Positions 8,401-11,400 of a stretch of 20,069 nucleotides of DNA are shown here, one piece after another. Numbering within the stretch: position 1 is the stretch's first letter; every line of letters starts with the position of its first letter. A program made the position numbers. The DNA is taken from the IMG/VR virus record IMGVR_UViG_2778261642_000012, positions 1 to 20,069 of that record; one strand, written 5' to 3'. The stretch comes from a virus. Taxonomy: Duplodnaviria > Heunggongvirae > Uroviricota > Caudoviricetes.

Positions 8401-11400
8401 CGCGGATTTGCGGGACTGGTGATGTTCTTGCCGAACATGCAACCTTTCGCTGTCAGCGACCAGAATTTTTTGATGTTGTTAATCGCGGTACGGCTGTATC
8501 GTTCGCGTTGTTCAACGATCCCCAGCTTCGCCATCTGGTGATATGCCTGATTAGCCGTCAGGCGGATACCATACTGCTTCAGCAGTGCACTCAGCGACAG
8601 CGTAGGGCGGCTTGAACCATCTGGCGCATCAGCAGGTGCATCAATGGCATAGATCGGCATAAGTTCAGGAAGACCAGCTACCTTTGATAATTTCTGGTAT
8701 GCACCAAGTTTCGAGGAGTTTGACAGATTTAGAGTCTTTGCTGCTGATTCAAGCAGAATGACCCCGGATTTAATTTTGTCGGATGTGGTTTCTTCTGGTG
8801 ATGAATTATGAAGCGCATCAAAAGTACGTATCACTTTTAAGCTGAATGCCGGGCTGATCCACATTGCATATGCATAGACCAGCTCTTTACAGACATACGT
8901 CCCACCATTGCGCCCCTGAATGGTGATGACAGGAATACTACGGGAATCTCCCGTAGTTTCTTCTTCCAATAATTCCACAAGAGCCTTCGTTTCAGGACGA
9001 CGCATAAACTCGTGAACTTCCAGCGAACGGGAGGAGCGATTCTCACCAGCGGCAAGAAGAGCAGCTTTCTGAAGGTCGTTAAGACAGTAGTTAGATTCGA
9101 AGTACTGGCGCACAGAAACGCCATCAATTACAAGCAACTGATTCATTGGTTTCTCCACAAATTTTTATCCACGAGCGGGACTGCACTCCCTTTTCGTTGA
9201 TGCAGGATGAACTTACTGCGATTTTTAATAGTTATCAAGGATACACTGTTCATAAATACAGTATCTTTAACGAGGTAATACCCAAATTTAGGGTGTTGCT
9301 CAATTCCGTTACCGAGTTGCTAATTTGCAACTCGCTTTTTCGTACTTACTGATAGTGATCTCGACCTTCCCCTCCGGGATAACCGGTCCCCACTCCACCA
9401 GCATTCTTTTCACCTGACTGTCGTCTTCCCACACCCCCGCGTGGGTCAGGGCGTCAAACAGCGCCTTGTTATAGTTGTCCAGATCGCGGATCCGGTTATC
9501 CGGAGGAAACAACACGATCTCCACTGAAGCAGGTGCCGACGTTGGTTTTGGCAGACGACGTAACTGCTCAACTATTGCTGCACACGCCGCGCTCTGGAAT
9601 TTTCGCCCCGCCGCGCTTATCAGGCTCTTACCAGCAAACGCCCCTTTGTTGGGGTGTCGCCAGTACGTGTTCACGCTGGGCGGAAAAGGCAGGATCAGCT
9701 TCATACTTTCAGGCCCCTCTCATGTAACCAGTGGGCTGCACGCAGCCTGGCGTTTTCCTCACCGGCAAGCAGTGAGCGGATAATCCCGACCGCCTCGCTG
9801 TCGTCGTCCTTCACCACGGTATGAAGCGTGATCCCCCGGGCCACACCACGCTTTATCGTGATGACGCCTTTTTTCTCCAGTGCGCGAAGATGCTCCACCG
9901 CTGCATTCACTGAACGGTATCCCAGCATGGTTGCCACCTCCTGATTGGTTGGCGGGAAGCCACGTTCTTTCTGATAAGAAATCAGCATATCCAGCACCTG
10001 CTGCTGGCATTGAGTTAAAGTCGTCATGCCGCCATCTCCCTGACCAGTTTTTCCGCCTGCTGGCGAACCTGCGCCAGAAACGCCTCACCACATGCCTCAA
10101 GTTCATCGCGCCCGATGTAGCTGATTGCCGGTCCCTTCCAGGTCTTGTCGAAAACAGCAATAGCACCAGCGAAGAAAGCGCCTGTCGGCACCTGCTTCTC
10201 ATCTTTCGGGATAAACCAGGCAGGCAGTTCAAAACCAATACGCCCGCGAATAAAAGCAATATGATCTGCATCTTCCGGCCACCACACTTCGCTGGTGGCA
10301 GCTTTGATCAGGAAAACATAGCGCCCGCCTTTATCACGCATGGCACTGGCATGTTTCATGATGTAACGCATGCCGGTGATGTATTGCCCCTCATGCTGAC
10401 TGGCGCGGCTGTATGGGGGATTACCAAAGGCAGCACCTTTAAGCTCCGCAAGACGTTCTGACCAGTCATGCGCCAGCGCGTTGTCTTCCGCCGTGTAATA
10501 CGCGGTACATTTGGCGTTATCACCGTCAGTAAACAGATCCAGGACAAACGGGCCAAACAGGGTGTTAATTCCCCAGAAAATGTTATCCGGCGTGCGCCAC
10601 TGATCGCCCACTTCCTTCAGTTCATGGGCTGGTTTGTTCCGCAGCTCCACCAGCTCCTGGCAATATTTATTACTCATTAAGCCCCCACGTAATTCCCTGA
10701 CAGATACCACTCATCACCCGATACAGCGCGCTTGCTGCTTTTCCGTAAGCACCGCTCACGACGTGCCAGAAAATTGTTTCGTTCTGGCTGGGAGTGGCTT
10801 TCACGGAATGCCGCCATCCACACGGTTGCAGCACGACGGTATAAGCCCCTGGACTCCAGTTCTTCAGCCTGGCGGGTCAGGCACAAAATCCCCCGGGGAT
10901 CGTTAGTGCCGACATAGAAATTGCGCACAGGTCTGGTTTCACGAACTGGTTGTGGTTCCGGCTCCTGCGCTCTCTCAGTCAGGCGCGGGAAATGTCTGCG
11001 TGTATATCCTTCACAACGGTGAGCCACACGCCCACTCTGACGTAACTTGCTTGCAGACTGCAGAACGCGCTGCCGTGAGTAACCTGCAAAAGCATCCGCA
11101 ATGTCTCCGGAAGTACACCCCGGATGGGCTTCAATGAATTTCTGAACTTCATTCAAAAGACTCATGATTACCCCCTGAATCCTGCCGGGATCTGGCTGTA
11201 GTCCACGTTGTCGTAACTGGCTTTGAAGTACGGGTCCTCGCGTCTGGCTGCAGATACCGCAGGAACTTCCCAGGATTCTTCGAAATGACGATCCGGACCA
11301 AAGAACGTGACAGCCTGTTTCACAAATTGTGTGCCGCTGTTACCCATCGCAGATACCCAGCCCGCGTAGCGTTTCACACCTTCCAGCATGGTTTCGGGTT

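Follow-up and report, generated by a model that had tools for sequence, protein, structure and literature searches.

yfdN of a lambdoid prophage: a PerC-family core joined to a predicted winged helix and encoded between replication and methylase genes

The yfdN Locus and Its Operon

The window (the whole 20,069-nt stretch of DNA that was analyzed; IMG/VR record IMGVR_UViG_2778261642_000012) has the context of a lambdoid prophage, i.e., of a horizontally transferred element. On its minus strand, the ORF at 10677-11165 (stop codon included) starts with ATG and encodes a protein of 162 aa (18.6 kDa; pI 10.0). A Shine-Dalgarno sequence, AGGGGG (11171-11176, minus strand), is located 5 nt upstream of the start codon (AGGGGG-TAATC-ATG), within the last codons of the preceding replication gene. 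The 162 aa ORF of the original prediction is real, and its start codon is well supported.

Over its 162 aa, the protein has 96% identity to YfdN of E. coli K-12 (b2357); it matches PHROG 1324 ("transcriptional activator") over its full length (E = 1.7e-77), and the RefSeq/PGAP label for the same gene is "yfdN: PerC family transcriptional regulator." SfV orf40 is also a 162 aa ORF, with the same length and start as yfdN of the window and six non-synonymous codon differences. In both SfV and CPS-53 of K-12, the neighbors are as in the window, with the replication gene upstream and the Dam methylase gene downstream; K-12 yfdN, however, resides in a cryptic, truncated prophage (CPS-53), in which the flanking yfdM and yfdO are fragments. 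The K-12 and RefSeq gene models start two codons further upstream, at a GTG, giving 164 aa; the window has GTA at that position, which leaves the ATG (162 aa) as the sole possible start. The ORF is thus almost certainly the lambdoid-prophage gene yfdN, of the SfV orf40 type, and a homolog of the PerC family. The gene is already known: both RefSeq and publications on EHEC label it as PerC family, and one of the latter calls it "the K12 unique PerC homologue" (PMC5931665). It is that of the existing yfdN annotation, and a new prophage-to-host regulatory link, as had been envisaged, is not added. A literature search turned up no experiment devoted to YfdN; the gene appears only as a precautionary deletion or as an entry in overexpression and transcriptome screens, UPEC transcriptomes among them.

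Of the 5426 complete E. coli genomes, 2668 (~49%), among them that of LEE-negative K-12, have yfdN, which is also carried by SfV, mEp460, the Stx2c, Stx2a, and Stx2k phages, and others. The cryptic state of CPS-53 in K-12 and the many database entries that are truncated or fused fragments would suit a nonfunctional or decaying passenger ORF that persists in mosaic prophages by linkage alone. However, the codon differences between the window and K-12 (13 synonymous, 7 non-synonymous) and the restriction of indels in homologs (20-30% identity) to in-frame changes in the interdomain linker fit a real coding gene. In addition, the two-domain protein and its invariant core residues are conserved across genera, to 20-30% identity, and a strong ribosome-binding site and translational coupling are preserved. 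The passenger explanation accordingly has almost no probability.

Within the early-right (pR, nin-equivalent) operon, yfdN is translationally coupled to both of its neighbors, the genes for a replication initiator and for a Dam methylase. The upstream gene of the same operon (11168-12025, minus strand) encodes the initiator (HTH_36/DnaD_N-like in Pfam; "replication protein" in SfV), contains iteron-like repeats (11617-11721), and ends with a TAA located 2 nt before the ATG of yfdN. At the other end, the stop codon of yfdN and the start codon of the methylase gene overlap as TAATG (10675-10679, minus strand), an arrangement for translational coupling, and the last yfdN codons carry the Shine-Dalgarno sequence of the Dam gene (GTGGGGG; 10682-10688). 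Equivalent overlaps of 1 or 4 nt are also found in related loci. The downstream gene (10024-10677, minus strand) encodes an N6-adenine DNA methyltransferase of the Dam family (PF05869; Pfam, 155.7 bits), and the next gene (9701-10027, minus strand) encodes a 108 aa protein consisting only of a LexA_DNA_bind domain (Pfam, 69 bits). By synteny, this LexA_DNA_bind gene is the constant downstream neighbor of YfdN-type genes.

The order of the operon is replication gene, yfdN, Dam methylase gene, LexA-like gene, and RusA gene, followed by the Q antiterminator gene (6568-7320). yfdN lies between the replication gene and Q, in agreement with the nin-like region to which it had been assigned. The order replication gene, YfdN-like gene, optional methylase gene, LexA_DNA_bind gene, RusA, DUF968, and Q recurs even where the YfdN homolog is only 26-35% identical. 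Unlike pchABC, yfdN is no stand-alone moron; its translational coupling within an early lytic operon suggests that it serves phage development and not lysogenic conversion. A crude consensus promoter scan found no sigma-70-like site upstream of yfdN. Given its operon position, yfdN would probably be expressed upon prophage derepression, along with the replication and nin genes, and not as a lysogenic-conversion gene. The SfV authors predicted a dam promoter inside the 3′ end of orf40; on the basis of this predicted promoter, some transcription of yfdN may also occur in the lysogen.

Domain Architecture of YfdN

Structure modeling and profile searches indicate that YfdN very probably has a two-domain architecture, in which a MarR/ArsR-like winged helix-turn-helix (wHTH) domain is connected by a flexible linker to a three-helix PerC core. 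The N-terminal wHTH domain (aa 1-60; 10986-11165, minus strand) is predicted by AlphaFold2, Foldseek, and profile comparison with the PDB. In the AlphaFold2 model, helices at residues 3-13, 19-25, and 31-44 are followed by strands at residues 47-52 and 55-60, with pLDDT values of 82-92. Foldseek matched this region to the wHTH domains of ArsR/SmtB, MarR, MepR, MecI, and SlyA proteins (E = 0.03-0.1), with an rmsd of 1.7-3 Å (about 2 Å) over 56-67 residues. A profile built from 30 N-terminal domains matched the MarR/EmrR entry 2fa5 in the PDB (E = 3.7e-6) as well as further entries of the MarR, BlaI, and SlyA types (E = 1e-4 to 1e-3). The N-terminus of the window protein itself has no significant match to a Pfam wHTH family; some of the diverged relatives match Penicillinase_R, MarR_2, HTH_24, or FaeA, and in NCBI records two of the distant relatives bear the names "MarR family" and "helix-turn-helix domain-containing." The predicted H1-H2-H3-wing topology is common to YfdN and the wHTH domains of MarR, ArsR, and BlaI, whereas YfdN would have a bare wHTH, lacking the dimerization helices of MarR and the sensor sites of ArsR and BlaI. 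This putative wHTH of YfdN was previously unremarked, and its sequence-specific DNA binding is a prediction of the model. The original prediction overlooked both this domain and the translational coupling of the gene within its operon.

The linker (aa 61-89; 10899-10985, minus strand) is rich in Pro, Glu, and Arg and is predicted from pLDDT to be disordered, with values below 50 (AlphaFold2) for residues 63-83. Length variation among homologs falls entirely in this segment, always in frame. At the opposite end of the protein, the C-terminal tail (aa 150-162, ...EWYLSGNYVGA; 10680-10718, minus strand) is likewise predicted to be disordered (pLDDT, about 40) but is conserved, in that the motif L[AS]G.[YF].G is retained in homologs of 25-50% identity.

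The C-terminal domain (aa 90-149; 10719-10898, minus strand) corresponds to the three-helix PerC core, as judged from Pfam and the AlphaFold2 model. The resemblance to PerC-family regulators proposed in the original prediction was borne out by a profile search: PF06069 matches aa 98-151 (10713-10874, minus strand) with 37.8 bits (E = 2.3e-9) when the whole protein is searched and 40.0 bits when only the C-terminal fragment is, relative to a gathering cut-off of 22.6 bits. PerC-family homology of the window protein is thereby confirmed at the level of sequence profiles. The predicted helices span residues 90-105, 109-122, and 126-149 (AlphaFold2; pLDDT, 88-95), and the domain is basic (pI 10.2; helix 3, pI 11.7). 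Within the PerC core, conservation is strongest in the motif quoted in the original prediction, LESRGLYRRAATVWMAAF (aa 103-120 of the ORF translation; 10806-10859, minus strand), with the pattern LE..G.YRRAA..W. Ala100, Glu101, Leu103, Glu104, Gly107, Tyr109, Arg110, Arg111, and Ala112 are invariant with PchA and PchE, as are Ala113, Trp116, Arg129, Arg136, Cys139, Arg141, and Lys142, and in an alignment with PchA, PchE, and plasmid Pch the entire motif A-E-x-L-E-x-x-G-x-Y-R-R-A-A-x-x-W...R...R-x-x-C-x-R-K is kept. Overall core identity to PchA and PchE is 33-36%.

The match to PF06069 is confined to profile positions 5-58 of 90, i.e., a core of ~55 residues, and the distal positions 59-89 are absent. 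Natural PerC proteins of 57-69 aa consist of just this core and also score above the PerC threshold, so that the distal part is dispensable for membership in the Pfam family. However, as the match covers 54 of the 90 profile positions, the properties of full-length PerC and Pch proteins may not transfer to YfdN. A sequence-profile search found no PerC or ANR structure in the PDB with which the C-terminal fold could be compared, and Foldseek searches of the PDB and BFVD returned matches to the N-terminal wHTH only and none to the C-terminal domain.

The protein had been described as PerC/ANR-like, of which the PerC part stands (PF06069 above its cut-off) and the ANR part does not. Whereas the NCBIfam ANR model NF033650 (ANR_neg_reg) has a cut-off of 32 bits, the whole protein scores 23.5 bits and two C-terminal fragments score 25.2 and 25.5 bits. 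The alignment spans 47 of the 54 model positions (E about 1e-5), and 19 of the 30 relatives match the model (best E, 9e-10), with scores again below the cut-off. The same sub-threshold likeness is seen in genuine PerC proteins, such as PchA and PchE (12 tested). Because it is common to all PerC proteins tested, it represents a distant, family-wide resemblance rather than membership, and assignment to the ANR family was rejected, as every score (protein, fragments, 30 relatives, 12 PerC proteins) is below the cut-off and does not discriminate.

A separate question is whether the C-terminal module might function in the manner of ANR proteins, by binding an AraC/XylS regulator and/or H-NS and down-regulating targets as Aar, Cnr, and Rnr do. 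ANR proteins are smaller than 10 kDa and have the signature residues A10, E14, A22, W26, A29, W43, and R47 (PMC4983702). In our own register, five of these seven residues (A10, E14, A22, W26, and A29) align with Ala100, Glu104, Ala112, Trp116, and Ala119 of YfdN, whereas W43 and R47 fall on Leu133 and Glu137, or on Phe132 and Arg136 after a one-residue shift, also in that register. A three-helix module is predicted for both the ANR proteins (Aar, Cnr, Rnr) and the YfdN C-terminus. Consistent with ANR-type action, a PerC-family protein of a phage-inducible chromosomal island (PICI) acts as a repressor, for which its authors suggested an ANR-like mode (PMC11773190). However, stand-alone ANR proteins contrast with YfdN (18.6 kDa), which has an additional, predicted DNA-binding wHTH; the profile likeness, shared by every PerC protein tested, is uninformative on this point; and, whereas ANR proteins accompany a cognate AraC/XylS-family regulator, a Pfam scan of 20 ORFs across the 20-kb window detected no AraC/XylS domain. 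ANR-type anti-activation by YfdN is thus improbable.

Diverged Relatives and Candidate Roles

The two-domain build is kept in about 30 diverged lineages of Enterobacteriaceae, to which all YfdN-type relatives belong. The PerC profile matches all 30 of the diverged two-domain relatives, and proteins with only 20-30% identity still have both domains, in Citrobacter, Salmonella, Lelliottia, Atlantibacter, Kluyvera, Kosakonia, and Mangrovibacter, which speaks for selection on each of the two. Three distant relatives are encoded outside early operons, one after recT (L016), one in an integrase/AlpA island (L014), and one on the chromosome, adjoining GerE/EAL genes (L017), which indicates that the function is not tied to phage replication modules.

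This distribution bears on the idea that YfdN is an accessory factor for replication or methylation, acting as a partner of the replication initiator or as a protein that targets or controls the adjacent adenine methyltransferase. yfdN directly follows the initiator gene, with translational coupling, in the position of lambda P/ren, and the replication module includes no gene for a P/DnaC-like loader. Furthermore, an N6-adenine methylase is encoded directly downstream of the YfdN-type gene in five independent loci, and these methylases belong to three unrelated Pfam families (PF05869, Dam; PF05063, MT-A70; PF02086, MethyltransfD12). However, locus L018 contains a replication gene, a YfdN-like gene, and a LexA_DNA_bind gene with no methylase gene, and the three distant relatives described above have neither an adjacent replication gene nor a methylase gene. 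Neither partnership is therefore obligatory, and the methylase gene looks like a swappable cassette of lambdoid mosaicism; obligatory coupling to a DNA methylase is weakened by the same four loci. The N-terminal domain shows a faint likeness to lambda Ren (PHROG 142, E = 0.009; hhalign probability, 57%), which is not significant and has no counterpart in BLASTP, so that homology to Ren is unproven, and no similarity to helicase loaders was found. An accessory role of this kind is quite improbable.

The original prediction also raised the possibility that the protein activates host virulence loci, as a PerC- or PchABC-like activator of LEE1/ler or of other host virulence promoters. Homology to PerC is genuine and includes the conserved core motif, and the gene is carried by Stx-converting phages of O157 and other STEC. 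PerC and PchABC activate LEE1 and, in published work, are the only ones of the tested homologs to do so (PMC5931665, PMC4332760, PMC11773190). Uhlich et al. removed yfdN from their K-12 ler::lacZ reporter strain as a precaution. However, activity at LEE1 drops with divergence from PerC. PchD has no effect and PchE an effect of less than 2-fold (PMC5931665); PerC2 and PerC3 (= PchD and PchE) are reported to be inactive at LEE1 (PMC4332760); and PICI PerC-like proteins are inactive at LEE1 or repress it, with EcCIMP1_025 as a repressor (PMC11773190). YfdN, with 33-36% core identity to PchA and PchE and without profile positions 59-89, is itself divergent. The gene is also found in hosts that lack LEE (K-12, Salmonella, Citrobacter, Atlantibacter, and others), and its site in an early lytic operon differs from the post-lysis moron position of pchA. 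Activation of LEE or of other host virulence loci is thus unsupported for a protein that has the core only, whose diverged homologs are inactive or repressive and which is encoded in LEE-less hosts, and this role is very unlikely. The PerC-family match in itself says nothing about the direction or the target of regulation, as the members tested comprise LEE1 activators, inactive proteins, and repressors.

On balance, the evidence from operon context and domain structure slightly favors yfdN as encoding an early-operon regulator, composed of a wHTH and a PerC core, that acts during lytic development. In the proposed mechanism, the winged helix would place YfdN on DNA, as suggested by homology, and the PerC core might then remodel or compete with nucleoprotein complexes of H-NS-family proteins, or bind another regulator, as in Pch, PerC, and ANR proteins. 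Precedents for such actions come from Pch, which binds DNA and displaces H-NS, StpA, and Hha at LEE1 (PMC4764244), and from the ANR protein Aar, which directly binds AggR and H-NS (PMC4983702, PMC5570504). By analogy with these proteins, a mechanism directed at H-NS or at another regulator can be put forward tentatively for YfdN. The outcome would be a change in how phage genes, and perhaps host genes, are transcribed during lytic development.

A broader and rather unlikely extension of this regulator model is that the YfdN type constitutes a distinct subfamily of DNA-tethered counter-silencers or hijackers of host regulators, working early in the lytic cycle of SfV/CPS-53-type phages. Their targets would be H-NS-family nucleoprotein complexes or another host regulator, at genes of the phage itself and perhaps of the host, and the PerC family would then have an ancestral role in phage development, with the virulence activators PerC and PchABC as a specialized offshoot. 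The modest lead offered by the locus is a very common prophage protein with a conserved predicted wHTH, a PerC core, and a constant position among the early lytic genes. Moreover, yfdN provides a tractable K-12 model for the function of the PerC/ANR core, the mechanism of PerC and Pch being still described as poorly understood.

YfdN and Known PerC-Family Systems

PerC (encoded on pEAF of EPEC), PchA/B/C (encoded on EHEC prophages), and YfdN have a homologous core of ~55 residues, which is basic and helical, and all are encoded on mobile elements of Enterobacteriaceae. PerC and Pch consist of a single domain (89-104 aa) and cover the full 90-position profile, with scores of about 150 bits (positions 1-89 of PF06069 for PchA and PchE), whereas YfdN matches only positions 5-58, at 38-40 bits, lacks the distal third, and has a wHTH and a linker in addition. 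The genes also differ in setting, as pchA stands by itself beyond the lysis cassette and yfdN is embedded in an early operon.

PchE (Sakai ECs_1588) and PchD were considered as orthologs of YfdN and rejected: PchE is a single-domain protein of 90 aa that scores 152.8 bits on the PerC profile, is 36% identical to YfdN over the core, and is encoded in another context, following an SSB gene in Sp7. PchD, PchE, and the PICI PerC proteins are nevertheless comparable to YfdN in being divergent members of the family that are encoded on prophages or satellites and have functions other than LEE activation; PchE, for example, represses csgD and curli and stimulates flagella (PMC6265319, PMC7369912).

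yfdN and its PerC core

The minus-strand ORF at 10677..11165 encodes 162 amino acids from an ATG start in the ORF listing of the window, and its translation signals are good: the ATG is preceded by an AGGGGG Shine-Dalgarno sequence at a spacing of 5 nt, the TAA of the upstream gene finishes 2 nt ahead of that ATG, and the TAA that ends yfdN shares bases with the next gene's ATG (TAATG). The ORF listing and these signals confirm the originally predicted gene, together with the segment singled out in it, LESRGLYRRAATVWMAAF, at residues 103–120 (window 10806–10859). Judged by sequence identity, the ORF is yfdN: YfdN of Escherichia coli K-12 (b2357, cryptic prophage CPS-53) is 96% identical across the whole length, with 13 synonymous and 7 non-synonymous codon differences, and orf40 of Shigella phage SfV equals the window protein in length and start. 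The RefSeq and K-12 model of YfdN has 164 aa, starting two codons upstream (GTG in K-12, ATA in YDC107). At that position the window has GTA (11163–11171, compared with the equivalents in the related loci L001, L002 and L007), and therefore the ATG common to all copies is the sole possible start here, as in SfV orf40; the 164-aa models are probably over-extended.

Of 5426 complete E. coli genomes, 2668 carry yfdN by Megablast, under the RefSeq name 'yfdN: PerC family transcriptional regulator'; the gene is also present in 49 phage records, among them SfV, mEp460, and Stx2a, Stx2c and Stx2k phages. Uhlich et al. (2018) termed yfdN 'the K12 unique PerC homologue' and deleted it as a precaution in a ler::lacZ reporter strain, leaving the effect of YfdN itself untested (PMC5931665); the remaining literature naming yfdN consists of screens or lists. 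The finding as first stated is already known in databases and literature, because the protein is nearly identical to a named K-12 gene product with the same annotation.

The PerC homology is real. PerC (PF06069) is the single Pfam-A family matched (E = 2.3e-9; 37.8 bits, curated cut-off 22.6 bits), with residues 98–151 aligned to profile positions 5–58 of 90, and the full-length protein matches phrog_1324 'transcriptional activator' (E = 1.7e-77). The C-terminal fragment alone reaches 40 bits and covers just positions 5–58, whereas PchA (ECs_1091, 104 aa) and PchE (ECs_1588, 90 aa) of strain Sakai cover positions 1–89 at about 150 bits; by this alignment, YfdN therefore has the PerC core and lacks the distal third. 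The fragment shares 33% identity with PchA and 36% with PchE, and the motif A..E.LE..G.YRRAA..W...R...R..C.RK is invariant in all three. When 1.84 billion representative proteins were searched exhaustively by HMMER with a family profile, only 147 clusters were returned; among them, natural 57–69-aa proteins consist of this core alone and score above the PerC threshold.

Membership of the ANR family, the other half of the original prediction, is not established: ANR is the only NCBIfam model returned, at 23.5 bits against a cut-off of 32 bits. Sub-threshold ANR likeness (13.6–28.5 bits) is common to every PerC protein tested, PchA and PchE included, and is therefore nothing specific to YfdN. 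The ANR model is also matched by 19 of 30 diverged relatives with both YfdN domains (E up to 0.01). From these scores, the PerC and ANR families look distantly related.

A second, N-terminal domain

An AlphaFold2 model built on 22 homologues (mean pLDDT 77.6) predicts a domain that had been overlooked, an N-terminal winged helix-turn-helix (wHTH) of three helices and a beta-hairpin (residues 1–60, pLDDT 82–92). It is followed by a linker that is disordered in the model (residues 61–89) and three helices (90–105, 109–122 and 126–149; pLDDT 88–95 over residues 90–149). The pTM is low (0.40), consistent with two domains placed independently. Foldseek aligns the N-terminal domain with ArsR/SmtB, MarR, MepR, MecI and SlyA structures in the PDB at about 2 Å over about 60 residues, with modest E-values (0.03–0.1), and a BFVD search agrees. 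With a profile from 30 N-terminal domains, E = 3.7e-6 is reached for a MarR/EmrR structure, and a number of MarR, BlaI, SlyA and Z-alpha domains score between 1e-4 and 1e-3. Individual diverged relatives match Penicillinase_R, MarR_2, HTH_24, MarR and FaeA in Pfam, and two distant ones carry the NCBI names 'MarR family' and 'helix-turn-helix domain-containing'. The similarity of this domain to lambda Ren is weak and falls short of significance: PHROG 142 gives E = 0.009, hhalign a probability of 57%, and BLASTP no match. The C-terminal domain is basic (pI 10.2 overall, 11.7 for helix 3), and no relative of it was found among solved structures.

Both domains are kept in about 30 clusters (50% identity clustering) at 20–47% identity to the query, with named sources in Citrobacter, Salmonella, Lelliottia, Atlantibacter, Kluyvera, Kosakonia, Mangrovibacter and E. 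coli. All length differences among these relatives lie in the linker, and 30 of 30 match Pfam PerC. The conserved architecture, with the excess of synonymous over non-synonymous differences from K-12, speaks for YfdN being functional and for the importance of each domain.

The tail ...WYLSGNYVGA (aa 150–162, window 10680–10718) is predicted to be disordered, and its pattern L[AS]G.[YF].G is kept in homologues at 25–50% identity. A short linear binding motif is one candidate explanation; another is constraint from the G-rich codons, which form the Shine-Dalgarno sequence of the translationally coupled downstream gene. One homologue, P0257, has neither the tail nor a coupled downstream gene.

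Early-operon position

By its Pfam annotation the window is a lambdoid prophage. Reading along the minus strand, a CII-like gene (13352–13903), an Ash/Rha gene (12204–13355) and a replication initiator with HTH_36/DnaD_N domains (11168–12025) precede yfdN, which is followed by a Dam methylase (PF05869, 10024–10677), a 108-aa LexA_DNA_bind-only protein (9701–10027), RusA (9309–9704), KilA-N (8331–9158) and DUF968 (7334–8329) genes, the Q antiterminator (6568–7320) and the lysis genes; a cI-like S24 repressor lies on the plus strand (14254–14946). 'Nin-like region' was a fair description. The promoter-like site scan found no sigma-70-like site upstream of yfdN, and early-operon junctions overlap or nearly do, from which we infer co-transcription from pR in lytic development.

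The 383-aa Ash/Rha ORF has Ash (aa 117–213) and Rha regulatory (aa 223–308) domains, and in the closely related L001 several small genes (ash family, DUF4222, hypothetical) are annotated in its place; the ORF may represent a fusion of genes, another kind of module, or an over-extended reading frame whose true start is internal. Imperfect direct repeats, three or four in number (GTGAAT...CTGCAC; 11617–11721, spacing 21–24 nt and 45 nt), lie in the low-complexity middle of the initiator gene and are probably origin iterons, as in lambda O. The most AT-rich stretch (6001–6600, GC 0.37 versus about 0.49 overall) lies directly downstream of the Q gene, the expected site of the late promoter and qut region, and would be the kind of sequence bound by H-NS.

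The gene order is repeated in loci whose YfdN homologue is just 26–35% identical (L008, L010/11, L012/13, L015 and L018). In five loci an N6-adenine methylase of one of three unrelated Pfam families comes next and overlaps the YfdN stop codon: Dam in the window, MT-A70 (PF05063) in L008 (577–1239), L012 (5474–6142) and L015 (485–1144), and MethyltransfD12 (PF02086) in L010 (5444–6268). This recurrence would suit a functional pairing of YfdN with the methylase, a minor rival that is undercut by L018 (3950–4324), where the LexA_DNA_bind gene follows directly and the methylase slot is empty, and by three distant two-domain relatives in other settings: after recT and before an acyltransferase in a Kosakonia prophage (L016, 3501–3998), in an integrase/AlpA island (L014, 5001–5480), and, on the Citrobacter amalonaticus chromosome, flanked by GerE/EcpR-like regulators on one side and a CSS-motif EAL phosphodiesterase on the other (L017, 3501–3941). 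The methylase is thus more plausibly an exchangeable cassette occupying a mosaic slot, and the pattern resembles non-orthologous cassette replacement at one fixed early-operon position. The LexA_DNA_bind-only protein (LexA DNA-binding domain at 69 bits, without the S24 protease domain) is a constant downstream neighbor in all early-operon loci examined, and therefore a second small, putative wHTH regulator in the same operon.

Possible mode of action and comparison with LEE activators

YfdN combines PerC-core homology, a wHTH N-terminal domain, a flexible linker, basic character and translationally coupled early-operon placement. The reading we favor is a DNA-bound modulator, acting upon prophage derepression, in which the wHTH would supply DNA targeting and the PerC core would either perturb nucleoprotein complexes of the H-NS type or titrate a regulator away; we offer this mechanistic step tentatively, as possible rather than probable. 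Two precedents bear on it. Pch binds DNA at many loci and activates LEE1 only through relief of H-NS/StpA/Hha silencing, H-NS occupancy falling, and its authors could detect no direct Pch–H-NS contact (PMC4764244). Aar, of the ANR family, has AggR and further AraC-family proteins as binding partners, and it also contacts H-NS directly (PMC4983702, PMC5570504).

That YfdN itself activates virulence genes (LEE) is very improbable. LEE1 activation is limited to PerC and PchABC among the homologues tested: PchD is without effect, that of PchE stays below 2-fold (PMC5931665), PerC2 and PerC3 are reported inactive, matching their distance from PerC (PMC4332760), and PerC-like proteins of phage-inducible chromosomal islands are inactive, with EcCIMP1_025 repressing LEE1 (PMC11773190). 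YfdN diverges further than these and misses a third of the domain, Pfam annotation finds no AraC-family partner in the window, and yfdN is carried by K-12 and roughly every second complete E. coli genome, as well as by LEE-lacking Salmonella, Citrobacter and Atlantibacter. Of the original prediction, PerC-family homology stands, whereas ANR membership does not, and the prophage-to-host virulence link is unsupported given this divergence, the partial domain and the LEE-negative carriers. What the analysis adds is the conserved joining of a wHTH to a PerC core and the constant place of the gene in the early operon, neither found mentioned in the literature searched; pchA, in comparison, stands alone past the lysis cassette, and pchE sits after an SSB gene in Sp7.
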